Notes under the pieces: model-generated
Told to the model about the DNA's origin: nothing
Seen by the model: only the letters and a program-made list of their open reading frames with translations
Databases searched by the model: none
Source of the DNA: a virus
Taxonomy: Duplodnaviria > Caudoviricetes
IMG/VR virus record: IMGVR_UViG_3300042934_001339
Location: 1 to 57,118 of that record
Length of the DNA: 57,118 nucleotides
Reading direction: 5' to 3' (one strand)
Program-made: the position numbers and the translations under genes
In this document: in pieces, positions 3,711-57,118 of the stretch
Position numbering within the stretch: the first letter of the stretch is position 1
How the letters are laid out: each line of letters starts with the position of its first letter

Positions 3711-6700
3711 TCAGGGGCGCGCGGCCCGCGCGCGCTCGTCCGCAAGCATGGCCAGCCGGTTGCGCGCGCGGTACAACAGATCCAGCTGAGCGCGCTTCTC
3801 CTCCGGCTGCAGGTCGGCGCGCTCCAGTGCTTTGATCCTGGTGTTCACGTCCCGCAGTTGGCTATCCGCAGCCTTGAACAGAGCGCGCACGCGCAGTTGG
3901 TCATCGCCAGCCAGCTCGCGCGCGCGCTCCAGGTCGCCCAGCTCGCGGGCCTGCGAATACGCCGCATAGACCTGGTTCACTTCCCGCTGCTCGTCGTAGA
4001 AGCGCTGGATGTACTTGCTGCTTCGTGGGTCGGCCTCCTTCACGAAATCGCCCACCACGAACCAGTTGTCTACGCGGCCAAGGTCGCGGCGGGGGTTCTC
4101 CGGCAAGCCCGACAGCGGCCGTGCCAGATAGTCCGATACGTTCAGCGCCTGGGTGCCCAGCCAGCCGAAGTACCCGCGCGCCAGGTGCTCGACCCGCTGT
4201 GGCGAGACACCCAGCGCCCGGCCCAGCGCCACCGCGCCGGCGGAAGTTGATGCCGTGAAGCGATCGCCAGCTGGCAGGCGCTGCTGGCCCACGCTGTCGA
4301 TGTCGCGCTCGCGGAAGGAGTCATAGTTGAACGCCGCTTCCATGGCGGGCTTCACCAGTTGGGGCACGGGGTTCATGGATAGCTGCTCCGTCAGGATGGC
4401 GCCCACAGTGCGCCCAAAATCCCGCAGGCGGAAATCGTCGCCGCCAAACGCCAGCTCGGTGCCGCGTTCGACCACGCTGCCCAGGGCACCAATTTCGAAC
4501 GGCTTGGGGATGTAGACGAACTGGTTGGTGCCAGGCAGCTTGGTGATCCAGAACGAGTTGCGCGCCCAGTCCGGCAACTGCTTGTAGTCGTCGTCGTCCT
4601 TCATGCCCAGGTAGAGCAGCGCCGACGCCATCGCGACCGCGCCCGTCACGGCGGCAAAGCGCGCAGGATCTGCGGCTGCGCCGCGCCCCAGCTTGTACAT
4701 GCCCTGCAGGCGAGCGTTGAAGAACGGCACGACCTGGGACAACAGGCGGATTGCCGAGAACGTGCCGCCGGCGGTGAAGTCCATCAAATCCCGCGCGGCG
4801 TAGCTGGCCTCCAGGTGGCTGCGCCCGGCTTTTCGCGCCTGCTGGTAGATCGCCGCGCGGTTGATCGTCTCCGCCCTATCGCCGGTTTCCTGGTACCAGT
4901 CAAAGGCCTTGCGCAACGCCCGCCCCATACCCGCGGGCGAAGTGATGACGTCGTCGGGGTGGGCACCCAGCTCGTCCACCAGACGCTTCACGTTGCGGGC
5001 GTTGCCGTCGTTGAAGGATCCGAACCGGACTGCGCCGCCGCCCGCCATCAGCCGGCGCCAGGTGTCGCTTTCGGACCCCGTCGCCTTCCAGCCTTCGGCC
5101 AAGTTGCGCAGCGGGTTGACGGACAGATTGCTGTCGATCGACATGGCCTGGATGGTGTCGCGCAGCAGGTTGCGCACGCGGAACGTCGGACTGATCGTCA
5201 CGCCCACCGTCAGCGCCTGCTTGAACTTGCGGGCCGCCTTGGTGAATGGGTCATTGGACCCCACGTAGTGCAGGGCCGTGAGCGCGTTCATCACCAGCGG
5301 ATCGTCCACTAGGTAGTGCCGCTCCTGACCGTTGAACATGGCCCGCACGCTCCCGCGCTCGGCTTGGCGCGCGCGCGTGGCAATGCCAAGCTTTTCCGCC
5401 TCTTGCAGGGCGCCCTGCGCGGCCAGGTTCTTCATGCTGGCCGAAAGCAGGTGGGACCAGTTCGACACCGTGTTGGCGACCAAGTCGCCCAGCTTGTCGG
5501 TGCCGCCCTTCAACCGCTTGTAGGCGTGCTGGCCGACTAGGCCGCCGATTTGGCCAGGCCCCATCGTGCCGGTGGCATCGTCCTCCATAACACGGTAGAA
5601 CGGGACGTAAAACTCGCTCTCCCACAGCTGGCGGGCGCTGGGATCGACCAGGCCAGCCTCCTGCGCCACGTCCAGCACAGAGCGCTGCAGGGCATTGAAC
5701 TCGGCTAGCGCCTCACGGTAAACCGCCGCGCGGTCGCGGCCATCGGCCATCTTGCCGGCGGCGAGCCGTTTGCCAGCCGCGATATCCTCGGGAGTGAACA
5801 GGCGTTCGCGCGACGCAGCTTCCGCCTTGGCGCCCGGCCACTTCGCCGCTTCTGCACGCGCCGCGGCTTCGTTGGCAAAGCGCTCGGTCACGCCATTGTC
5901 GAATCGCACCTGCCATTCCGCGGCCAGGCGCTCGGCTCGGTTGGCTGCAATCCAGGCCATGAAATGATCGTGCTCGCCATTCAGGCCGGCCAGGATCTCG
6001 GCCAAGCCCTTCCCGCCGGCGGTGTCCAGCGCGCCGTCCTGCAACTTGACGGCACCATGGCGTACCAAATACTCCGCTGCGCCGTCTGCACCCTTGGACA
6101 GGCGCGCCTGCATGTAGGCGGTTGCGCTGATGCCCTTGAGCGGCGCGAACTGGTCGAAGATGCCCTGCACCAGCTTGGCCTGCCACCGGTCGGACACTTT
6201 GACCAAGCGCTCCTTGATTGGGTCTTGCTCAGCCCATGCGCCGATCTTGCCCAGGAACTTGTTGCGCTGGCGGCGCTCGATGTCTGAAAGCGATTCGCCG
6301 GTTCGCGCGACCTTAGCGCCGCGCTTGGGCTCGCGTGGGGCGCGCGGTGCCATCGGCGGCACGGCCGCCGTGCCGGATGCGGCGCGCGACTCCATCGGCC
6401 CAGAAGTAGAAAGCCCCGCACTGGGCGGGGCTTCTTCGTTGGGGTCGCGGCTTAATGGGTTCGCGGCTTCTTCAGCAGCTCTCCTGCCAGCTCCGCCGAT
6501 TCGCGCATGTCTTTCAGCAGCAATTCGACCTCGGACGGCGTCAGGCGCGTCATGCTTGGCGAGGTAGCGACCTTCAGATTCTGTGAGCGCGTCGAAGCCG
6601 CGGCCAGTGGCTTCGCGGAAAGCTTGTTCGACATCGCCATAGCGGGCTCGCAGTTCTGACAGGGTTTCGGGGGACAGCCGCAAGGTAGCACTGTAGAGTT

Positions 6701-9700
6701 TGCCCGTCAACGCGAAGGACCCAACCACCCGGCCCCCATTCTGTTCGATGTGCGACGCCAGCGCGGCGAGGGTGCCGCCTTGCGTCAGGGTGTCATCGAC
6801 CAGGAAATACGGCTTGCCGGGCTGCACCGCCCCGTCGAACTCGGGCTGTTGGAAGATCCGCCCCAGGCCATCGAGCGCAGTGCGCTTCGCCTTGACGGAC
6901 TGATAGATGCCCACCTCCAGAGGCAGGCCAAGCCGCTCGGCCAAGGCGGTAGCCGTGACGACGGGAATCTTGTTGTGGCCAGCGGCTTCAATTGCCAAGA
7001 CCGGCACGACTGAGGGCTGTTCACCCCCGATCGCTTCCCGGACCTGCGCGACGGCGTCGTCAGACAGCACGTCCTGCACCAGACGCACGGCGGCCGCAGT
7101 GTCGCCGGCCTTGGCCGCAGGATGGTCCGGATGCTTGCCGGCCGTTCCCAGCCGTTGCCCGATGACCACGGACGGAAGTGAGACAGGGTCGGCGCCGCGG
7201 CGGGACTCTGCTGCCAGCGAGGCAGCTGCCTCTTGCATGCCGGCGCTCGCGCGCGCTGCGGGCGCGCGCTTCAAGAACCGGCCCGCATCGATCACCATCT
7301 GCTTGATGTCGATGTTGGTCAGCTTGAGATTCAGACCGAGCCGTCGCAGCGCAGCCCGGATCTTGCCGTAGAGCCGTTCCAGGAAGATGGGGCGGCTGCC
7401 CTGCTCCGCCATACGGGCCAGGACTTCGCGGGCCCGGTTCTCGGCGGAATAGTCGGGATAGCGCAGCGTCACCGCTTCGAACGTGGCGTAATGAGGATGA
7501 TCCGGCCCAGCGTTGCGCGGGATGTGCGCGCCGTCAGGCGCCCGCGCCAGGCGGCGCACGTCCGCCAGAACCTCGCCGAAGCGATCACCCAGCAGCGCCT
7601 CCACGCCGAAATGTCCCACCACCTCGTGCGTCAGGACCTGGTGCAGACGCTCAGCCGTCGGTAGGTTCTCGGCCACCAGGTAGATGCGTCCGCCGTCATT
7701 GGCGGGGTAATAGGCGCCCTCGGCGAGAGTAGACGGCTTGGCCCCTTCCGGGATCTGGTCCACGCTTTCCACGACCGACACACGAAGGTTGGCTGCGCCG
7801 GGCAGATTGCCCATGAACTCGGCCGCCTGGCGGCGCGCTTCCGCCACCTCCAGGCCGGGCCCACCTTCGCCGCGACTCTCCAGGCCAATCCGCCCATCCT
7901 CGCCGGGCACCTGCTCCACGGTTTGGAAAAAGCGATCGAACGCAGCGCGCACCGGCGCGATTTCGGCGGCAGTCGGATAGGGATAGCTGGCCTCGTCGCC
8001 GAATGCCTTTTCATTGACCACGTTCGCCAGATAGTCGTTGGCTGCGCCCTGGTCGACCAGCTTGGCGATCAGGTAGCTTTCAAACGCCCGCGCCGACAGC
8101 TCGCGGCCCGTGGACCAATAATCCTTTGCCCGGCGCTCGTCCAGTTTGCTGGACCGCTCCCGCATGCCAATCAGACCAATAGTCTGCTTCAGATTACCGA
8201 AGGCCTCAGCCATGGCCGGCCGGATTCCGTCGGTTCGGTTGCCAGTCTCCGAGGCGTAGCCCGCCAGCGCTCCGCCCCGACGCGAGAAATAATTGTCCAG
8301 CCCGTGCCACCATTCATGGCCCAGCGAGCCAGCGCCGCGACCCTTCGTCAGGTTGATCACCACCTGGCCCGGCTCGTAGTGGGCCACAGCTGCATCCACG
8401 CCGCCCCGGCCGCGTGCGCCGAACGCCAGCCCCAATTCCCCGTTCAGGGACAACGCACGTGCCGGCAGGCCAAGCACGCCGGCCATATCCATGAGTGCGT
8501 CGTATGCCTCGTTCAGGTCGGCTTGGCGGCGACCCCCTTCGACGTAATTGCCGAACTGCACGCCGCGGAACCCAAATGCCTCTGTGAACCGCTCCGGCGA
8601 GACGTCGGCGCCGTCACGATGGTCCACGCCCACGCGCGGCGAATTCGAACCGCGGCGATGAGCCGGCACCTCCTTAAGCTTCTCCAGCTTTTCGGCCAGG
8701 CGGTCCTTGTTCTCTGCCAAATACGCCCGCGCTGCCTTGATATCAGTGAAGTGCTCCAGGTCGACATGCACACGCCCGACCTTCTTGCCGATGTAGAACC
8801 CGGGCATACGCGGACGCGAGTAAATATCGAATCGCACCTCGCGCTCGGGCGCCGCTCGCTCATCCTGCTGCGCGGCAAAGCGCTGGAACTCAGCGATCGC
8901 CGCCTCAGCAGTATCGCCGTGGCCCAGCATACGCGGCCAGTTACCCAGGCTTGAAGACGCACCGCGTTGCACACTCCAGATCGTCCGCGGCGGGTCGTGG
9001 CGCACGCCCGCGAACACGCTGTACTGGCCAGATTCCAGCGTGACGCCCCGCAGGGACTGTCCGTGCCCCAAGGCTTCATAGAGCCGCGCACGTCCGTATA
9101 CCTTGCGAAGTTCGGGGGGCTTCTCCAGCCCGGCGCGAATGTCGCCGCTCGAGACCTTTCCGCTTAGGAGCGTGCCGGAAAACTCGCGCAGCCGTTGGAC
9201 TTGATCCGTCCATCCACGCAGCTTCCAGCTGCTGCGCGGCTTGGCCGGCACTTCATCGCGGGCCGCACGCGCCAATGCCACCAGGAATGGATCGGCGCCA
9301 TCCTCGAGCAGCTTGGCATAGTTGGGTTCGGGCCAGGATTCGGCGAGGGTATGGTTGGCGATTGGCAGCGTTTCGGCCAGGCGCATGCGTTCGGCGTATT
9401 GCTGCGCGTAATGCTTGCGGGCACCCCGCAGCGTTTCGCCGAAATCTTCGATCTTGCCGTCGGCATTGGACGACGGCCGCTCCGCGGACGTCTTTGGGGC
9501 TGCTTCCTGGGTGGGCGCGTTGACCGAGGCCAGTTCCTGCTGGCCTCTCGCCGCGGCCTGGTCTGGGGCGCGGTCGCTACCTGTCAGGACGAAGTCGTCT
9601 CGAGAGGAATCTGCGACAGCGCGCTGCTCCGCCTCGCGCTCACGCGCAGCGGTCTTTCGGTCGACCTCGGCCTGCTCCTGGGCCGCATTGCGCAGACCCT

Positions 9701-12700
9701 GGGGCGTCGGCTGCTCAAGAGTCAGCTCTTGCGCGCTGCCTTGCGGATCACTTCCTGAGCCATCTCCAGAGTTTCCGGCGACTGCGCTCTGTCCACTGCG
9801 TCTAGGATCGACGTCACGCCGTCCACCATACGCTGCTGCTGCGGACTTAAGTGCGTCGGCAAAGGCGGCGGGGGACTCTTCGGTTTGAATTGCCGCGCGT
9901 TCGATGAGGGCTTCTCGGGCTTTTGCATTCGTGATTCCTTGTTCGTGGAGATAGGCCGCGGCATCAAACTGCGCAGCCAAATCGTCCATCGTCGTGTCTG
10001 CAGGCATCTTACCAATGACCCCGAAGAGATCATTGGCCAGCTTTTCCTTGTCGACCTTGTCAAACCGCTCGGCTTCGCGCTCAGCATAGGCGCGGCGAGC
10101 CGCTTCGTCCATTTGCTCCAGCGTGTAGACCGCCTCACCTTCCAGGGCTTCGCGTACGCGGTCCATAGCGGTGCCCGACAGATCGACGGTGTCGCCGTCC
10201 ATCGGCAGATATCCCGCCTGCTGCATGGCCTCCACCAGCATGTCGGCATCCATGCCGCCCCTGCGGAACAACCCGGGCGCACGGCGATTGGCCAGGTGCG
10301 CGCGATCGCCGTAGATATCGGCTGCCAGCTCCGGCCGGATACCGCCTGCTTGCCGCACCATCTGGAGAAAGCCGCGCCGGGCATCACGCCCGAAATCCGC
10401 GGCGGTGGACCCGGGCTCTGCGGCGGGCGCTTGCCCGGTGCGCGGCCGGGCGACGAATCCCCCCTCGACTGGCACCGGCTCCGCGTTTCCATGCGCGGTG
10501 GCGGCGCGCTGTGCAGCGCCTCGCGTGAGAAACGGCCGGCCATTTTTGGCGGTGATATCGGGCTCATACACCAGCGTGCCAAGCCCGGATTCTGCCGCGG
10601 GCCGCGTGGTGTCGCTATCGGCCAGCCAGCGCTTGAACGTGGGCATGTCCATCTGCGTGACCCTGCCCATACCCCGCCAGTCCGGCGTATAGCTGTCGCG
10701 ATATGCGCGTTCAGCGTCCTCCCGGCTGTCGTAGCCCAACATCACCTTGGATTCATCGAACCCGCGGTGCCCAGGGTCCACCTGGTCGATCACGAACACC
10801 GGGCCGCTGAAGTTGGGCGACGTGCCCGGCCGCACGAATACGTCGACCTGGTCACCGTCTGCGCCTTCCGTGCGGCGGATGTAGCCGTAGTGGCCCGCCA
10901 TCCGGTTCACCCATGCGGTACCGTCCGGCGCGGTGCCGCGACGCTCTGACCCCTCCGGATTCTCGATCGACAACTCCAGGCCAGCCACGCGCGTGCGCCC
11001 GACCTTGTAGTTGCCGGCCTCCTTCTGAGCTTCCGACGGCTCTGGCCGGCCATTCGTGGGAGAGGTCGCTGCCTCGTTCGCAGCTGTGTCGATCGCCGCG
11101 CCTGGATGCCGCTCGCCGGCGGCGGCCACATCGGGCGTCAGGCCCATGGCCGCCTGGCGTTCCAGCTCGGCGCCACGCTGGCCGGCGGTCGCGGCAACGC
11201 CGGCCGCATCCACCTGGTACACGGGCGCCGGCAACGCGCCCCGCGCAGGAGCACCGGCGAGGGCCGCGCCGACACCCTCGGCGAGCTGCTCGGCCGTGTA
11301 AGGCTGCATGCCGTTTTCGTGACGGATTATGGCCGTCGTCAGGCGTTCCAGCGTGCTGGGGTCGCTCAGGTCCAGCCGCTCGCCAGCGTCAACGCCCAGT
11401 GCTCGCGCGACCTCCTGGACATAGGCGTTCGTGTCATTCTCCGACGGAGGCGCCCAGCGATTCACGATGTCCTGCACGGTGTCCAGGCCATGCTGGCGTT
11501 GATAAGTCAGCAGGTTGCGTGCGGTCGCCCGAATACCCGCCTCCGGCGACTCGAAGGTGGCAAACCGAGAATCGTTGCCCTCGACTTCTCCGGCAAAGCC
11601 GACACCCTTCTGGATATTGCCCGGGTTGTTGTTGCGGATCCCGCGCGGCGCGTTGGTCGGCATGCGCCAAGACTCGCGGGCCGTGAAGCCATCGCCGGCG
11701 GCATAGCCATTCGGAGCTGGCAGCACATCACGTCGCGCCGGCCTATCCGTCGGCTGACGCGGCGCATCATTGGGCAGCGCAGGCGTTGGAGGCAGCGGGT
11801 CTGAGGCCAACTCCGATAGGCGAACGAAATACCCACGACCATCGCCCGTCCGGATCCGCGCCAAAGGCTCCCCGCCTGGCCGCGCAGTGGCAGCGTTCCG
11901 CTCCAAGCCCAGAAACTCGACCGGCAGTTCCTGACCATTCTGACGCAGATAAATCTGCTGTCCCCGCGTGAATGAGTCGCCCGCCTTGGTCTGGCCAGGC
12001 GTTGCCGCCTGCGCCTGTGCGGCCGACCGTTGCGCCTTGGCCAGCTCGACCGCAGGCACGTACGACTCCCGCAGGTTCACGCGCACCCTGGCATATTGTT
12101 GCCCGTCGGCCCCTGCCTCCGGCTCCATGCGTATGAACTCCACCGGAACGCCGTTCCAAAAGACCTGCTCGCCTCGTTCATACATCGGCGTGGTCTGTGT
12201 CTGCTCGGCAGCCCCATCCGCGTGGACAGGCGCTTCCCTTCCTCGGCCCGGACGCACGATGAAGCCATTATCGTGGCGCATGACCTGGGCATCGCCACCC
12301 AGCTCCGCCGCACGCTGGCGCGCCGCGCTGGCCGTGACAAATGGCATGCCGCTGGCGTGCATCACGTCGCCCGCCTCCAGGGAAGGCGCCACCTGCACCC
12401 CACGGCTGCGCACGCCATCGGCCGCGCCGTGCACGGCGCCTGGCCCCATGCCGGCGACAAACCCCAGAGCGGCGTTGCCGAACGATCCCTCCAGCGGGTC
12501 GAGGTTCATGCCCGCGCCCGCGTTGATGCCCGTCTGCGTCGCCACGCCTTCGCCGACTTCCTGGATGGCTTCCTCGGATCCGGCCAGGCCGGCGCGCCCC
12601 ACAGTCTGCGCGACCGCACCGCGGCCACCGAGCACGCGCCCAGCCGGCGACAGAATCCTGCCCGTCGCGGCGCCGCCCGCAGCGGATACCGGGACCGTAC

Positions 12701-13499
12701 GTGCAAACGCCGCGTCCTCGGCCTCGGTCCTCACGCGCGCCCGCGCCTGTGCGGCGGTGTAGCCCTGTGCCAACAGGTCCCGGAAGCTGGACGAAGCCGC
12801 GGCCAGTTGCTCGTCGTCCATCCCGTCGATAGTCTCGCGCGCTTGTTCGATGGCGTTACCGCCGCCCATCGCGCCGCCGGCGCCCGCTCCGGCCGCCATC
12901 CGCGCGCCGATCCCGGCAGGGCCAGCGATCGCTGAAGCCGCAATAGGGACCGCGCTGCTGCCCAGGGCGTTAAGGCCCTGCAGGGCCAGGCCCGACGCCG
13001 ATGGATTGCGCCCGAAGGTCCAGGTGTCGGGCTTGTCCAGATCGCCGCCGGGTTGCGAATCGGCCTCGCGCTGCTTGGCCTCGGGAGTGCGCGAATCGAG
13101 GATGCGCTGGCCCAGCCCATGGGTAGCGTCTGCCGCGTCTTCAAGGGGATTAGCGGGGACGTCCAGGCCAGCGTCAAAGGCTTGATTTAGCGCCGTCACG
13201 CCGACCCGGCCGAGACCTTCGGCTACCTTGCCGACCCCACGGACGGCGCTGCCCGCGCCCTTGATTGCGCCGCCGGCGAAGGTCTTGGGATAGTCGACGA
13301 ACTCGATGCCGCTGGCGTCCTGCTGCGGCTTCTGGAAGTCGGCAACACGGAACGTAAACGGGACGGTCATCGGAGCGGCGCCGGCGGGCGCCTTGGCGTC
13401 CGAGAATCGGACCTTCAGGTCCTCGCGGATGCCCTGATGGCGCGCGTCCACGTTGTCTTTGAACTCGATCCCCTCGTCGGGGCTTTCAAAGTTGTCCAT
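3711..13499 (-). CDS. Giant polyvalent virion/ejection protein (lysozyme-like, inorganic PPase-like, LPD5/LPD1-like, zincin HExxH, PRTase, LPD38-like domains)
   Basis: 3262 aa; motifs PRGIRNNNPGNI...HENG, EAQKEAGNYK...GADGDQVDVF, KIEDFGETLRGARK, GHEWWHGLD...ELSARAFE, HEVVGH, LVDDTLTQGGT, DDDYKQLPDW...IPKPFE. Confidence 0.88.
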   Translation of the reverse strand: MDNFESPDEGIEFKDNVDARHQGIREDLKVRFSDAKAPAGAAPMTVPFTFRVADFQKPQQDASGIEFVDYPKTFAGGAIKGAGSAVRGVGKVAEGLGRVGVTALNQAFDAGLDVPANPLEDAADATHGLGQRILDSRTPEAKQREADSQPGGDLDKPDTWTFGRNPSASGLALQGLNALGSSAVPIAASAIAGPAGIGARMAAGAGAGGAMGGGNAIEQARETIDGMDDEQLAAASSSFRDLLAQGYTAAQARARVRTEAEDAAFARTVPVSAAGGAATGRILSPAGRVLGGRGAVAQTVGRAGLAGSEEAIQEVGEGVATQTGINAGAGMNLDPLEGSFGNAALGFVAGMGPGAVHGAADGVRSRGVQVAPSLEAGDVMHASGMPFVTASAARQRAAELGGDAQVMRHDNGFIVRPGRGREAPVHADGAAEQTQTTPMYERGEQVFWNGVPVEFIRMEPEAGADGQQYARVRVNLRESYVPAVELAKAQRSAAQAQAATPGQTKAGDSFTRGQQIYLRQNGQELPVEFLGLERNAATARPGGEPLARIRTGDGRGYFVRLSELASDPLPPTPALPNDAPRQPTDRPARRDVLPAPNGYAAGDGFTARESWRMPTNAPRGIRNNNPGNIQKGVGFAGEVEGNDSRFATFESPEAGIRATARNLLTYQRQHGLDTVQDIVNRWAPPSENDTNAYVQEVARALGVDAGERLDLSDPSTLERLTTAIIRHENGMQPYTAEQLAEGVGAALAGAPARGALPAPVYQVDAAGVAATAGQRGAELERQAAMGLTPDVAAAGERHPGAAIDTAANEAATSPTNGRPEPSEAQKEAGNYKVGRTRVAGLELSIENPEGSERRGTAPDGTAWVNRMAGHYGYIRRTEGADGDQVDVFVRPGTSPNFSGPVFVIDQVDPGHRGFDESKVMLGYDSREDAERAYRDSYTPDWRGMGRVTQMDMPTFKRWLADSDTTRPAAESGLGTLVYEPDITAKNGRPFLTRGAAQRAATAHGNAEPVPVEGGFVARPRTGQAPAAEPGSTAADFGRDARRGFLQMVRQAGGIRPELAADIYGDRAHLANRRAPGLFRRGGMDADMLVEAMQQAGYLPMDGDTVDLSGTAMDRVREALEGEAVYTLEQMDEAARRAYAEREAERFDKVDKEKLANDLFGVIGKMPADTTMDDLAAQFDAAAYLHEQGITNAKAREALIERAAIQTEESPAAFADALKSAAAAYGGRRDVDPRRSGQSAVAGNSGDGSGSDPQGSAQELTLEQPTPQGLRNAAQEQAEVDRKTAAREREAEQRAVADSSRDDFVLTGSDRAPDQAAARGQQELASVNAPTQEAAPKTSAERPSSNADGKIEDFGETLRGARKHYAQQYAERMRLAETLPIANHTLAESWPEPNYAKLLEDGADPFLVALARAARDEVPAKPRSSWKLRGWTDQVQRLREFSGTLLSGKVSSGDIRAGLEKPPELRKVYGRARLYEALGHGQSLRGVTLESGQYSVFAGVRHDPPRTIWSVQRGASSSLGNWPRMLGHGDTAEAAIAEFQRFAAQQDERAAPEREVRFDIYSRPRMPGFYIGKKVGRVHVDLEHFTDIKAARAYLAENKDRLAEKLEKLKEVPAHRRGSNSPRVGVDHRDGADVSPERFTEAFGFRGVQFGNYVEGGRRQADLNEAYDALMDMAGVLGLPARALSLNGELGLAFGARGRGGVDAAVAHYEPGQVVINLTKGRGAGSLGHEWWHGLDNYFSRRGGALAGYASETGNRTDGIRPAMAEAFGNLKQTIGLIGMRERSSKLDERRAKDYWSTGRELSARAFESYLIAKLVDQGAANDYLANVVNEKAFGDEASYPYPTAAEIAPVRAAFDRFFQTVEQVPGEDGRIGLESRGEGGPGLEVAEARRQAAEFMGNLPGAANLRVSVVESVDQIPEGAKPSTLAEGAYYPANDGGRIYLVAENLPTAERLHQVLTHEVVGHFGVEALLGDRFGEVLADVRRLARAPDGAHIPRNAGPDHPHYATFEAVTLRYPDYSAENRAREVLARMAEQGSRPIFLERLYGKIRAALRRLGLNLKLTNIDIKQMVIDAGRFLKRAPAARASAGMQEAAASLAAESRRGADPVSLPSVVIGQRLGTAGKHPDHPAAKAGDTAAAVRLVQDVLSDDAVAQVREAIGGEQPSVVPVLAIEAAGHNKIPVVTATALAERLGLPLEVGIYQSVKAKRTALDGLGRIFQQPEFDGAVQPGKPYFLVDDTLTQGGTLAALASHIEQNGGRVVGSFALTGKLYSATLRLSPETLSELRARYGDVEQAFREATGRGFDALTESEGRYLAKHDAPDAVRGRIAAERHARIGGAGRRAAEEAANPLSRDPNEEAPPSAGLSTSGPMESRAASGTAAVPPMAPRAPREPKRGAKVARTGESLSDIERRQRNKFLGKIGAWAEQDPIKERLVKVSDRWQAKLVQGIFDQFAPLKGISATAYMQARLSKGADGAAEYLVRHGAVKLQDGALDTAGGKGLAEILAGLNGEHDHFMAWIAANRAERLAAEWQVRFDNGVTERFANEAAARAEAAKWPGAKAEAASRERLFTPEDIAAGKRLAAGKMADGRDRAAVYREALAEFNALQRSVLDVAQEAGLVDPSARQLWESEFYVPFYRVMEDDATGTMGPGQIGGLVGQHAYKRLKGGTDKLGDLVANTVSNWSHLLSASMKNLAAQGALQEAEKLGIATRARQAERGSVRAMFNGQERHYLVDDPLVMNALTALHYVGSNDPFTKAARKFKQALTVGVTISPTFRVRNLLRDTIQAMSIDSNLSVNPLRNLAEGWKATGSESDTWRRLMAGGGAVRFGSFNDGNARNVKRLVDELGAHPDDVITSPAGMGRALRKAFDWYQETGDRAETINRAAIYQQARKAGRSHLEASYAARDLMDFTAGGTFSAIRLLSQVVPFFNARLQGMYKLGRGAAADPARFAAVTGAVAMASALLYLGMKDDDDYKQLPDWARNSFWITKLPGTNQFVYIPKPFEIGALGSVVERGTELAFGGDDFRLRDFGRTVGAILTEQLSMNPVPQLVKPAMEAAFNYDSFRERDIDSVGQQRLPAGDRFTASTSAGAVALGRALGVSPQRVEHLARGYFGWLGTQALNVSDYLARPLSGLPENPRRDLGRVDNWFVVGDFVKEADPRSSKYIQRFYDEQREVNQVYAAYSQARELGDLERARELAGDDQLRVRALFKAADSQLRDVNTRIKALERADLQPEEKRAQLDLLYRARNRLAMLADERARAARP
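6401..6433 (-). terminator. Intragenic terminator-like hairpin inside the giant gene
   Basis: 9-bp stem AAGCCCCGC/GCGGGGCTT, 5-nt loop, followed on the minus strand by a T-rich tail (TTTCTACTTCT). Confidence 0.65.
6452..6640 (-). CDS. Candidate nested (overprinted) small protein after the PRTase domain; start may be 6640, 6634 or 6553
   Basis: Alternative frame ending MTRLTPSEVELLLKDMRESAELAGELLKKPRTH (amphipathic helix), flanked by a promoter and a terminator. Confidence 0.55.
   Translation of the reverse strand: MAMSNKLSAKPLAAASTRSQNLKVATSPSMTRLTPSEVELLLKDMRESAELAGELLKKPRTH
6682..6710 (-). promoter_or_regulatory. Intragenic sigma70 promoter
   Basis: TTGACG-N17-TACCTT with extended -10 TG. 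Confidence 0.55.
9722..9928 (-). CDS. Candidate nested (overprinted) 68-aa protein
   Basis: AAGGA RBS 7 nt before ATG; helical C-terminus LSPQQQRMVDGVTSILDAVDRAQSPETLEMAQEVIRKAARKS; extended -10 TGGTAAGAT at 10014-10006. Confidence 0.5.
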   Translation of the reverse strand: MQKPEKPSSNARQFKPKSPPPPLPTHLSPQQQRMVDGVTSILDAVDRAQSPETLEMAQEVIRKAARKS

Positions 13500-16496: not shown

Positions 16497-16970
16497 TCAG
16501 TCTCCCCGCGCGGCCCGCTCGGCCTCAAGGTTGGTCAAGTACTCGCCCCAGGGCTCGGTCAATTGCCGCAGCTCCACACCCACGTCCCGCGCCCACGTGG
16601 GCCCGCCCAGCAGCAGCGCGCTGTGCGTGACCAAATCCACGTACGCGCCGCGCATTACGTAGGCGATCCTCTTGGGTGCAGTGCCCTCGGCACGCTCCAG
16701 CTCGGTCGCAATGCGCCAGTTGGTGCTGGCGTTCGCCAGAATCGAATTGAGCGTGTCGAAGTTGGCCCGGTAGAAGGGGTTGCGCGGCAACAGCACCAGC
16801 GCGATGAACATGCCTTCGTGGATCGCGTCGTCAGCCAGCACCCGGTCGCGGTCTATCAGGTCGTCCCACAGGTGCGCCACCTGGAAAGCCAGCCGCAGGA
16901 AGTCGACGGCGGCTTGGTTGCCGCGCATCCAGCGCAGGGCCAGCGCCGGGTCAAAAAAAGGCGCGCTCAT
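16497..16970 (-). CDS. Hypothetical helical protein with DDxxD motif
   Basis: 157 aa, HLWDDLIDRD; coupled to neighbouring genes. Confidence 0.7.
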   Translation of the reverse strand: MSAPFFDPALALRWMRGNQAAVDFLRLAFQVAHLWDDLIDRDRVLADDAIHEGMFIALVLLPRNPFYRANFDTLNSILANASTNWRIATELERAEGTAPKRIAYVMRGAYVDLVTHSALLLGGPTWARDVGVELRQLTEPWGEYLTNLEAERAARGD

Positions 16971-17263
16971 TGGCGCGCCTTCCTGGTCTTGGTGCTTGCC
17001 CCGAACCTGGGCCGGGCGGCCGTCTTTCGCACGGGCCGAGCCGGCGCGGGATCGCGCTGGTAGGCAGGGTCGACGTTAGCGGCCGGTGTGATCTGGCCAA
17101 CTCCCGGCGCCGGTTCTCCGGGTGGCGGTGAGGCAGCGACGACGGCGTCGTTAATCGCCTTCTGCGTCACCTGCACCAACGACATGACCAGGCCGATAGC
17201 CAGTTCCTGCGTGAGGCGATTGCCCACATTCGAGAAAATGAGGCTCTCAATCTGCTGTTGCAT
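16967..17263 (-). CDS. Hypothetical protein (tail chaperone-like position)
   Basis: 98-aa ORF, ATGA overlap with the next gene. Confidence 0.6.
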   Translation of the reverse strand: MQQQIESLIFSNVGNRLTQELAIGLVMSLVQVTQKAINDAVVAASPPPGEPAPGVGQITPAANVDPAYQRDPAPARPVRKTAARPRFGASTKTRKARQ

Positions 17264-56154: not shown

Positions 56155-57118
56155 TCGCGCTCTCCCGGTAATAAATCATCAAACTGCGTGGGTCCCGATG
56201 ACCGACCATACGTGCAAGCTCCAAGATGCTCAATTTCTTGGCCAGCCGCGTCAACGCCGTGGCCCTCGCATCATGGAACGTAGCGCCCTCCACCTCGGCC
56301 AACGTCTTGGCATGCCGGAAGTACACGTCGCGCAGCGCGCCAGTCAGCGTGAACATGCGCACCTTGTCGACATCTTTGAGGGCCTTGAACAGAGACACCG
56401 CCCGCTTAGACAGCGGCACGGCGCGCCGGTCGCCGTTCTTGGTCTGGTCCAGCTGAGCCACCTGCTTTTTCAGATCGACCTGCGTGCGCTCCAGAGACAG
56501 CAGCTCGCCCGAGCGCATGGCCGTCTCAAGGGACAGCAGGAACGCCACGGCAGTCTGGTGGCGCTTGTCCTCGACGGGCTTGCCCTCTTCCCACCCCAGC
56601 GCCAGCACGATGCGGTCGATCTCGTCCTGGGTGTAGATCCGCTCGCGATGGCGGCCCTTGGACGGCATGGTCAGCGCAAGCCAGGCGTCATCCTTGACGT
56701 TGTGCCATTCCTTCCTGGCGTAACCCCATGCGGCGCGCAGCAAAGCGATGTCGCGCCGGCACGAGGTTGGCTGCACCTGCGTCAGCCGCTTGTCCCGCCA
56801 GGCCGCCAGGTCGACCGTCGTGACGGTGTGGATGGGCTTGGCGCACAGGGTCGGCTCTTCCTTCAGGAAACGATCGATCCGGACCCGTTCCCACCGGTGG
56901 CCCTTGTTCTTGGGCGACACCTCATCGCGAAACCGCTCCAGCACCTGGGCCAGCGTCTTGACGACGATGCCGCCCACGGCCGTGGTCGCGAGCTCTGTTT
57001 CCCGGCTGGCCGCCCATTCCTGCGCCTCGCGCTTGGTGGCAAAAGTTTTGCTCTCGCGGGCGCCGCCCTTGCTCACCTCTGCGCGCCATGTGTCTCCGCG
57101 CTTGCGAAACGTACCCAT
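56129..57118 (-). CDS. int: Tyrosine recombinase (prophage integrase)
   Basis: ETAMRSGEL, TKNG..R.VPLS, FHDAR, VGH, YY catalytic motifs. Confidence 0.95.
   Translation of the reverse strand: MGTFRKRGDTWRAEVSKGGARESKTFATKREAQEWAASRETELATTAVGGIVVKTLAQVLERFRDEVSPKNKGHRWERVRIDRFLKEEPTLCAKPIHTVTTVDLAAWRDKRLTQVQPTSCRRDIALLRAAWGYARKEWHNVKDDAWLALTMPSKGRHRERIYTQDEIDRIVLALGWEEGKPVEDKRHQTAVAFLLSLETAMRSGELLSLERTQVDLKKQVAQLDQTKNGDRRAVPLSKRAVSLFKALKDVDKVRMFTLTGALRDVYFRHAKTLAEVEGATFHDARATALTRLAKKLSILELARMVGHRDPRSLMIYYRESASEIAAKLD

Follow-up and report, generated by a model that had tools for sequence, protein, structure and literature searches.

The subject of this work is a short open reading frame (ORF) that lies hidden in the +1 frame of the gene for a giant virion protein, in a genome of the Caudoviricetes (IMG/VR record IMGVR_UViG_3300042934_001339). 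The stretch analysed, which we call the window, comprises 57,118 nucleotides, is a complete provirus by the class of its record and carries an integrase gene at positions 56156-56569 of the minus strand. The giant ORF has Pfam matches to InPase (amino acids 823-959), LPD5, LPD1 and LPD38 together with a sub-threshold match to Pribosyltran, a set of domains that is the hallmark of the 'polyvalent proteins' of Iyer et al. 2017 (PMC5512222; this paper, PMC5576092 and PMC8124265 are cited throughout for a part of their text). Its main frame, the host frame in what follows, stays open through a promoter-like site, the hidden ORF and a hairpin, all of which lie at or just behind the end of a phosphoribosyltransferase (PRTase) module. 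On the evidence of comparative analysis, the hidden ORF is a small conserved coding sequence that is overprinted on the module and tied to this clade of PRTases.

The module itself is covered over amino acids 2100-2331 by phrog_22413 (E 1.7e-64 to 7.5e-63), the profile of a family of about 242 amino acids that is listed in PHROGs as of unknown function. An AlphaFold 2 (AF2) model of amino acids 2104-2334 (predicted local distance difference test, pLDDT, 91.8) matches the orotate and adenine phosphoribosyltransferases OPRT and APRT with a probability of 1.0, and residues D132 and D133 of the module, the DD motif of the phosphoribosyl pyrophosphate (PRPP) loop, are invariant. Fold and DD motif together identify a type I PRTase of the mobile-element (KfrC/ComFC-like) clade, which Pfam family PF00156 matches with 21.1 bits, under its gathering score of 26.3. 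The structure of the defence toxin ShosT (8zvc) ranks 50th among the fold matches, and the profile matches to PsyrT (E 9.8e-5) and ShosT (E 2.2e-3) are weak. The PRTase core also has a weak, sub-threshold NCBIfam match to the XopC/Rsp1239 type III effector (E 4e-4, 18.7 bits, cut-off 1000), which probably reflects just the shared PRTase-like fold.

A conserved ORF in the +1 frame of the PRTase module

A preliminary description of this DNA, made from the letters alone, had proposed an alternative-frame ORF inside the giant gene. Its stop codon lies exactly where it was claimed (TAA 6454-6452), the +1 frame is open from 6691, and the ORF is conserved far beyond chance. The encoded peptide consists of a core, L-T-x-S-E-[IV]-E-S-L, followed by an amphipathic helix. 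To follow it through the family, relatives of the PRTase were gathered from viral contigs, genome contigs, named phages and plasmids, and the resulting loci are referred to by L numbers. The sequence M-[TE]-R-L-[TS]-x-S-E-x-E-S-L-... is read in the +1 frame of each of the 13 close loci, and the frame ends 13-21 nucleotides 5' of the hairpin window. Of 103 phage locus entries, 92 contain the motif in their +1 frame by the criterion of a regular expression, which corresponds to 64 of 66 distinct segments. The remaining 11 phage loci were judged by eye, and nine of these carry the motif as well and had been missed through failure of the anchor expression. The final leucine of the motif is replaced by phenylalanine in L051, and a divergent, duplicated form is found in L080. 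Beyond phages, at plasmid loci with 35-44% identity, the motif is present in the +1 frame in seven of eight cases, among them IncP KfrC, RA3-like KfrC and the 237-amino-acid solo PRTase of Acinetobacter plasmids; plasmid locus L124 retains only the distal helix, with its tryptophan. The linkage of the peptide to this PRTase clade, for which the preliminary description had suggested a homologue search, is thus seen in nearly all phage loci and in most plasmid loci. The alignment of 34 peptides is free of internal gaps for about the first 28 residues, and L4, S7, E8 and L12 are invariant.

Protein searches add little to this. Among near relatives the peptide profile found 13 proteins, all of which are +1 ORFs called on short contigs; being the same ORFs, they are not independent evidence. 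One gene caller had called the 62-amino-acid version in a relative (P0003). A wider search with the profile gave a single match, again to the same ORF, and no in-frame relative within a known protein. Neither the 79- nor the 62-amino-acid form of the peptide has a match in Pfam, PHROGs, PADLOC or NCBIfam.

Some loci are of interest in their own right. In L080 (1501-2300) the open +1 frame exceeds 90 codons in length and contains the motif repeatedly, as TLSELKSLQQD, LTPAEIEDLRRD and LTPSEIESLQQD, and the main frame there repeats GPDxxRxxILAAG. In the metagenomic phages L057 and L059 the main frame has a stop in the linker (..KRED, then the stop codon), about 34 codons past LTESEARYL, and the +1 ORF is uninterrupted, so the split of the giant gene falls exactly on the hidden ORF. 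The IncP loci L118 and L121 and the RA3-like loci L119 and L125 encode KfrC with a PRTase of the same clade and the same +1 ORF, and the kfrC copies in L119 and L125 are truncated beside IS26/Tn3-type elements.

Constraint phased to the +1 codons

Constraint was measured in 32 lineages less than 93% identical to one another, by counting Fitch changes on the domain tree. Over the PRTase domain, the first, second and third host codon positions have undergone 4.80, 3.31 and 11.14 changes per site, respectively; over the 12-codon core of the hidden ORF the values are 5.58, 4.08 and 3.75. The constraint on synonymous sites of the main frame, which the preliminary description had named as a test of its proposal, is therefore present: the third position is about three times less variable over the core (Mann-Whitney p=5.7e-7), and the lowest value in any other 12-codon window is 5.58. 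The ratio of third- to first-position changes in the core is 0.67, as compared to a domain median of 2.28 and a minimum of 1.37. Within the core the most constrained site is the one that is synonymous in the host frame and non-synonymous in the +1 frame, and the freest is the third base of the +1 frame.

The same phasing is evident from individual codons. The arginine codon that supplies the +1 glutamate is CGA in 30 of 32 lineages and AGA in the other two (CGA makes up 15.6% of arginine codons elsewhere), and the valine codon before it is GTC in 20 of 20 cases. The host codon preceding the motif is always N-[CT]-T; the host residue is variously A, P, V, I, L, T or S while the +1 leucine is invariant. 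Across the +1 codons L4, S7, E8, S11 and L12 there have been 36 changes at first and third positions, which keep the residue, and a single one at a second position, which alters it. Over the distal helix the signal is weaker but points the same way: the +1 frame has a mean pairwise BLOSUM62 score of 0.72, and the host and third frames have scores of 0.41 and -0.15, respectively. Finally, where the host gene ends early (Mcat8-type phages, L092, L096, L099 and L120) the +1 ORF extends beyond the host stop, and in two Moraxella-phage lineages the differences within this extension are synonymous and conservative. Hence the alternate frame is open and similar in diverged homologues, and synonymous change in the host frame is reduced in phase with it, as is looked for in overprinted genes. 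We consider it very probable, from these patterns of substitution, that the +1 frame is protein-coding.

Where translation would begin is less clear-cut. The preliminary description called the ribosome binding site weak and the start codon uncertain, and rightly so, as no convincing Shine-Dalgarno sequence precedes either ATG and the start codon is not fixed across lineages. All 54 distinct ORFs have an ATG, GTG or TTG upstream in the open +1 frame. An ATG one to three codons before the leucine of the motif is found in the Achromobacter-type group, in L033, L053, L072, L084, L088-L094, L096 and L099, and in Mcat8; these motif-adjacent ATGs arise from differing host residues (H, Y or D). The upstream ATG (6640-6638 in the window) derives from CAT/TAT codons. 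Between it and the motif lies a Leu-Thr pair (column 206) whose leucine codon is CTC or CTT in 32 of 32 lineages, as against 39% of leucine codons elsewhere, and these two are the only leucine codons that avoid a +1 stop at this column. This hints that translation often starts upstream of the motif, which here would give the 62-amino-acid product. A start at -32 was considered as a universal rule and rejected, since it is missing in several lineages.

Table 1. Positions of the hidden ORF, the gene that contains it and the flanking elements in the window
Feature	Position	Strand	Remarks
+1-frame ORF, short form	6452..6553	-	ATG 6553-6551 to TAA 6454-6452; 33 amino acids + stop, MTRLTPSEVELLLKDMRESAELAGELLKKPRTH
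+1-frame ORF, long form	6452..6640	-	ATG 6640-6638, first ATG 3' of the putative transcription start; 62 amino acids + stop
Conserved core of the hidden peptide, LTPSEVELLLKD	6509..6544	-	overlaps main-frame PDAVRGRIAAER
PRTase module, main frame, swappable cassette	6498..7202	-	amino acids 2100-2334; phrog_22413, AF2 model, fold matches
-35-like TTGACG	6705..6710	-	main-frame codons Leu(TTG)-Thr(ACG)
Weak extended -10-like TG-c-TACCTT	6682..6690	-	17 nucleotides after -35; TG 6690-6689, TACCTT 6687-6682
Conserved stem-loop	6410..6434	-	10 pairs including a terminal G-U, 5-nucleotide loop
T-rich tail	6401..6409	-	T-ending codons ACT, TCT
Main-frame junction motif EAPPSAGLSTSGPMESR	6384..6434	-	hairpin-encoded; start of the conserved C-terminal module
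Giant polyvalent virion protein ORF	3711..13499	-	9789 nucleotides, 3262 amino acids; domains InPase, LPD5, LPD1, PRTase, LPD38

The promoter-like site and the hairpin

The preliminary description went further and saw a complete mini transcription unit around the ORF, with a promoter TTGACG-N17-TACCTT extended by TG and a hairpin with a T-rich tail. As to the promoter, the sequence is present as described, and its -35 element is under synonymous-site constraint: the leucine codon within it is TTG in 31 of 32 lineages, as compared to 12.3% TTG among leucine codons elsewhere in the domain. The TG of the extended -10 element is supplied by the serine codon AGT, used in 20 of 32 lineages as against 10.9% elsewhere. 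The pattern TTGAC-N18-TANNNT occurs once in the 57-kb window with an expectation of 0.30, and 27 of 100 shuffled sequences contain at least one match, so the pattern alone is not significant (p ~0.27).

The hairpin, too, is where it was placed (arms AAGCCCCGC at 6433-6425 and GCGGGGCTT at 6419-6411, loop CCAGT, tail TCTACTTCTG to 6401), and it is conserved with covariation. Both arms are found in 24 of 24 Achromobacter-type loci, with one C missing in L014. Pairing is retained in 198 of 200 pair cells (20 distinct rows), and two pairs have changed on both sides; these changes, CCG..GCG to CCT..GAG in L018 and L019 and A-T to C-G in L021, are compensatory and alter the protein. The wobble bases of the stem are invariant and those of the loop and the region downstream are variable. 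The covariation score is 0.125, as opposed to 0.061 in shuffled alignments, none of which (0 of 500) scored as high. No other strict hairpin-plus-T site exists in the 9.8-kb gene, and the minus strand of the window has just one more, at about 16958-16981, of the form AAGGCGCGCC-AATGA-GCGCGCCTT followed by TTTTTT. By comparison of these loci, the G+C-rich stem-loop is clearly kept by selection. As an intrinsic terminator it falls short in its T run, which does not reach five T in eight and has five T in ten under a looser rule. Hairpins within the host ORF also follow the +1 stop in L086 and L097, and the Mcat8-type phages have a canonical terminator there. A scan of 6200-6900 against Rfam returned only isrJ (E 0.68), which is noise. 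The missing C in L014 (3004-3048) is in the C run of the stem, and the frame upstream of it differs, which points to a split or broken giant gene or an assembly error.

What does the main frame encode beneath these elements? It had been described as linker-like, and this holds for the variable stretch between the module and the hairpin. The first 20 or so codons of the short ORF, in contrast, overlie the last helix of the PRTase, which is conserved (the phrog_22413 match extends to amino acid 2331, and the AF2 model has a helix at 216-230), and the hairpin encodes the junction motif listed in Table 1. In L001-L023 this hairpin-encoded motif takes the form EAPPxAGL[SR]xSGPMESR and begins the C-terminal module whatever cassette precedes it, and more distant lineages have related motifs (LSFSRS, PLFSRS, TGFSVSG) at the same place. 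The motif may mark a boundary of recombination, or it may be a site of processing.

Exchange of cassettes in the giant gene

The closest deposited phage is Achromobacter phage CF418P1, which shares with the giant ORF the N-terminal 1360 amino acids, a middle block and the last 913 amino acids (92% identical). In place of the PRTase cassette (amino acids ~2120-2350 here) CF418P1 has an unlike cassette of 180 amino acids, from which we conclude that the PRTase is an exchangeable cassette. Nucleotide homology to CF418P1 restarts at about 6439. A matching small ORF was sought in the alternative cassette of CF418P1 and rejected, as the +1 frame there is rich in stops and then runs through the hairpin. 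Modules have been shuffled more generally between the provirus (3711-13499, minus strand) and CF418P1 (L001:4579-12633); the LPD5/LPD1 block (amino acids ~1360-1882) is found only in the provirus of the two.

A relative of the provirus, about 95% identical, is represented by contigs of 10-34 kb in soil metatranscriptome libraries, in which about 0.3 of the sequence words are present. These contigs (Logan) cover the whole giant gene and are uninformative on a short transcript, its start or its end. In this relative the stretches of the giant gene at ~10913-11295 and ~11708-12247 are swapped for other sequence.

Predicted binding of the peptide to the PRTase module

Co-folding had been suggested as a further check of the proposal, and it predicts a complex. 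With alignments of 32 rows for the module and 34 rows for the peptide, co-folds of the PRTase module with the 33-amino-acid peptide reached an interaction prediction score from aligned errors (ipSAE) of 0.80, 0.82 and 0.80, as against 0.02 for the best of three controls. These are model scores; of 80 solved complexes 58 reached this ipSAE mark, as did 2 of 110 mismatched pairs, a calibration that holds only roughly here because the alignments were our own. Between runs at least 97% of contacts are the same, and the partner has a pLDDT of 86. On the side of the peptide the predicted interface is formed by the invariant L4, E8 and L12 and a face of the helix, and on the side of the enzyme by helices 31-41 and 75-87 and by loops beside invariant residues. 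The model thus lends support to an interaction in which the peptide binds the PRTase module.

For what such binding might do, one guide is KfrC of plasmid RA3. Its overproduction slows growth, and replacement of DDT141-143 by AAA abolishes the effect; the isolated N-terminal fragment, kfrC1-249, could not be cloned (PMC8124265). We considered whether this fragment is unclonable for lack of an antidote and rejected the idea, because in an RA3-like copy the cut removes only the last ten or so +1 codons. As most of the +1 ORF is spared by a cut at residue 249, the published cloning failure does not discriminate. Given the toxicity of the RA3 KfrC PRTase, a role of the peptide in immunity or regulation is plausible by analogy, and the arrangement would fit a toxin-antitoxin pair in which a small partner ORF overlaps the end of a toxin-like gene.

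Discussion

We propose that the PRTase module codes in two frames at its 3' end and that the +1 frame there would yield a small protein of 33 amino acids (from ATG 6553) or 62 amino acids (from ATG 6640). This protein would be an obligate companion of PRTases of mobile elements, whether in phage polyvalent proteins, in MuF-PRTase fusions or in plasmid KfrC. Most likely it would bind the PRTase and restrain or regulate it, as an immunity or antitoxin protein encoded inside the gene of its own toxin. The conserved -35-like TTGACG and the hairpin could permit a short transcript of its own, and late transcription would read through the hairpin. We put the probability of this reading, a dual-coding PRTase end whose companion peptide most likely binds and restrains or regulates the enzyme, at roughly 0.5. 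Comparison among lineages bears out the constraint on coding, the linkage to the PRTase clade and the conservation of the -35 base and of the hairpin. Binding is supported by the model, and inhibition, autonomous transcription, termination and the choice of start codon are inferred.

Besides the rough calibration of the co-fold, a number of observations weigh against this proposal. There is no fixed start codon, the position of the in-frame upstream ATG, GTG or TTG varying from -1 to -42, and the largest phage group has no motif-adjacent ATG but only an ATG or GTG about 32 codons upstream. Coding support for the distal helix is modest (variability is highest at the third base of the +1 frame, Wilcoxon p=0.045). 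The -10 hexamer is not conserved; what is kept is just N-A-N-N-N-T, with A2 and T6 on non-synonymous positions, and neither the plasmid nor the Mcat8-type versions contain TTGAC. A consensus scanner called neither a promoter, the -10 element matching in three of six positions, nor a terminator, the T run being too poor. In addition, 11 of the 24 hairpin loci carry another cassette, without the hidden ORF, and as the hairpin is equally kept in these it belongs to the junction with the C-terminal module rather than to a unit specific to the PRTase. No hairpin follows the +1 stop in groups B, C and D, the hairpin is missing from the largest phage group, and a hairpin in this position has therefore been rejected as a general rule. 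Of the mini transcription unit of the preliminary description, then, the overprinted ORF is real and the -35 element is constrained, whereas the -10 element is not conserved and the hairpin is not specific to the cassette. The autonomy of such a unit is offered here as a hypothesis, and so is the immunity role that the preliminary description saw in it, in which a product expressible in the lysogen would neutralise the virion-delivered PRTase.

Two further points bear on that role, and they also speak for a peptide that is translated but is no inhibitor and instead serves as an activating or stabilising subunit or as a helper in assembly or packaging, or is an unrelated passenger of the cassette. 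The predicted interface does not take in the PRPP loop (residues 131-140), and inhibition is thus not evident from it. Moreover, full-length kfrC is growth-inhibitory when overexpressed (PMC8124265) although its +1 ORF is intact, so that the peptide is not a complete antidote under those conditions. The lack of any function assigned to the peptide by the four family collections fits such a role as well. It is at odds, however, with the strict linkage of the peptide to a domain that has a toxic homologue, and with a layout like that of the small ORFs which follow MuF toxins (PMC5576092), and we regard a companion without inhibitory function as rather unlikely. The +1 codons could also be reached by a programmed +1 frameshift from the giant ORF, to give a shorter isoform with an alternative C-terminal helix after the PRTase. 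Many lineages indeed have no start codon beside the motif, and the +1 stop comes just 5' of the next module, in some lineages 5' of a hairpin. Then again, the stretch of six to nine codons that precedes the motif differs among lineages in sequence as well as in length, and no conserved shift-prone site is discernible by eye, which makes frameshifting a minor rival; an upstream in-frame start in every distinct ORF and the recurrence of motif-adjacent ATGs from different host residues argue in the same direction. We consider it improbable.

Least probable to us, with a chance slightly below that of the frameshift, is that there is no second protein and that selection acts on a nucleic-acid element, such as an RNA structure or a regulatory or recombination site, the +1 frame being open by composition. 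Linkers of high GC content that are rich in G, A, R and E seldom make +1 stops, there is a real structured hairpin nearby, and the empty Rfam scan leaves room for an undescribed RNA. Such an element would not readily explain why changes are phased to the +1 codons (36 against one at the five near-invariant codons), why tryptophan and leucine are held in the +1 frame while the host residues vary, or why the motif persists at 39-41% GC and past the host stop.

Beyond the proposal of a dual-coding module with a restraining companion at this locus, a bolder and more tentative generalisation, to which we give somewhat less than even odds, is that every PRTase of the mobile-element clade bears its own antidote or regulator in the +1 frame over its last helix and linker. 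This would span phage polyvalent proteins, MuF-PRTase fusions, solo plasmid PRTases and the KfrC proteins of IncP-1 and IncU plasmids. Toxin and keeper would then be inherited as one cassette, in an arrangement that predates the split of the family between phages and plasmids, and the hidden ORF would have been missed by annotation because gene callers discard nested ORFs.

How does this arrangement compare with known systems? KfrC of the IncU and IncP-1 plasmids RA3 and RK2 belongs to the same clade (39-44% identity by tblastn over ~95% of the module), has the same +1-frame ORF, and has a PRTase domain that is toxic on overproduction in a DDT-dependent manner (PMC8124265). It differs from the phage protein in that it is linked to plasmid maintenance and conjugation, has a coiled-coil tail and is no virion protein (PMC8124265); the flanking TTGAC and hairpin are missing there as well. 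A second frame does not appear in this literature in so far as the words 'overlapping' and 'reading frame' do not occur in the part of PMC8124265 cited here, nor 'small ORF' in PMC7414963. The PRTase of phage and plasmid polyvalent proteins described by Iyer et al. 2017 corresponds to the module studied here in domain family and architecture (MuF fusions, InPase, LPD1/5/38; PMC5512222). In the part of that paper cited here, its alignment file S2 aside, the words 'overlapping' and 'frameshift' are likewise absent. The MuF modules of temperate phages resemble the present locus in that a virion-associated multidomain protein with a variable enzymatic domain is followed by a small ORF thought to protect the producer (PMC5576092). 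Such a small downstream ORF accompanies 89.4% of 191 muf toxin genes (Jamet et al. 2017, PMC5576092), and the main text of that paper, again in part and supplements aside, contains neither 'PRTase' nor 'phosphoribosyl'. Unlike in MuF modules, the small ORF here occupies the +1 frame of the toxin-like domain itself and lies wholly inside the ORF of 3262 amino acids. The two arrangements meet in Moraxella phage Mcat8, where the PRTase is the C-terminal domain of a MuF-type protein and the hidden ORF overlaps its end.

Short genes nested out of frame in longer ones have precedents in comS within srfA-B of Bacillus subtilis and in Rz1 within Rz of phage lambda, and Rz1 works together with the product of its host gene. 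Neither has any sequence relation to the hidden ORF or is tied to an enzyme cassette that moves between phages and plasmids. The PRTase effectors of the defence systems ShosTA and PsyrTA are toxins; they share with our module the type I PRTase fold, and in these systems the toxic effector is held by a partner. There, however, the partner gene is separate and non-overlapping, and similarity is marginal and confined to the PRTase core. The morons of lambdoid prophages consist of a promoter, a small gene and a terminator in the late operon and are expressible from the prophage. They lie between genes, whereas the hidden ORF is inside the giant ORF and its 'terminator' is part of the neighbouring conserved module. 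In the literature, supplements not included, we found no description of the second frame. Judged from the sequences compared here, the hidden gene is an out-of-frame nested companion far more widespread than one phage, and to our knowledge few same-strand overprinted genes in bacteria and their mobile elements have strong comparative support.

Conclusions

The hidden ORF is tied to a family of enzymes whose role has been termed 'enigmatic' (PMC5512222) and of which one member, RA3 KfrC, is toxic for reasons that are unknown (PMC8124265). A hidden partner, if it is real, would change the reading of kfrC deletions, truncations and overexpression, as constructs of kfrC that cut or mutate the region concerned would also alter a second gene. 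If the proposal is true, a binder of some 30 amino acids would also provide a handle on the role of the PRTase, and it would be shown that a cassette shuffled among giant polyvalent proteins can travel together with its regulator.

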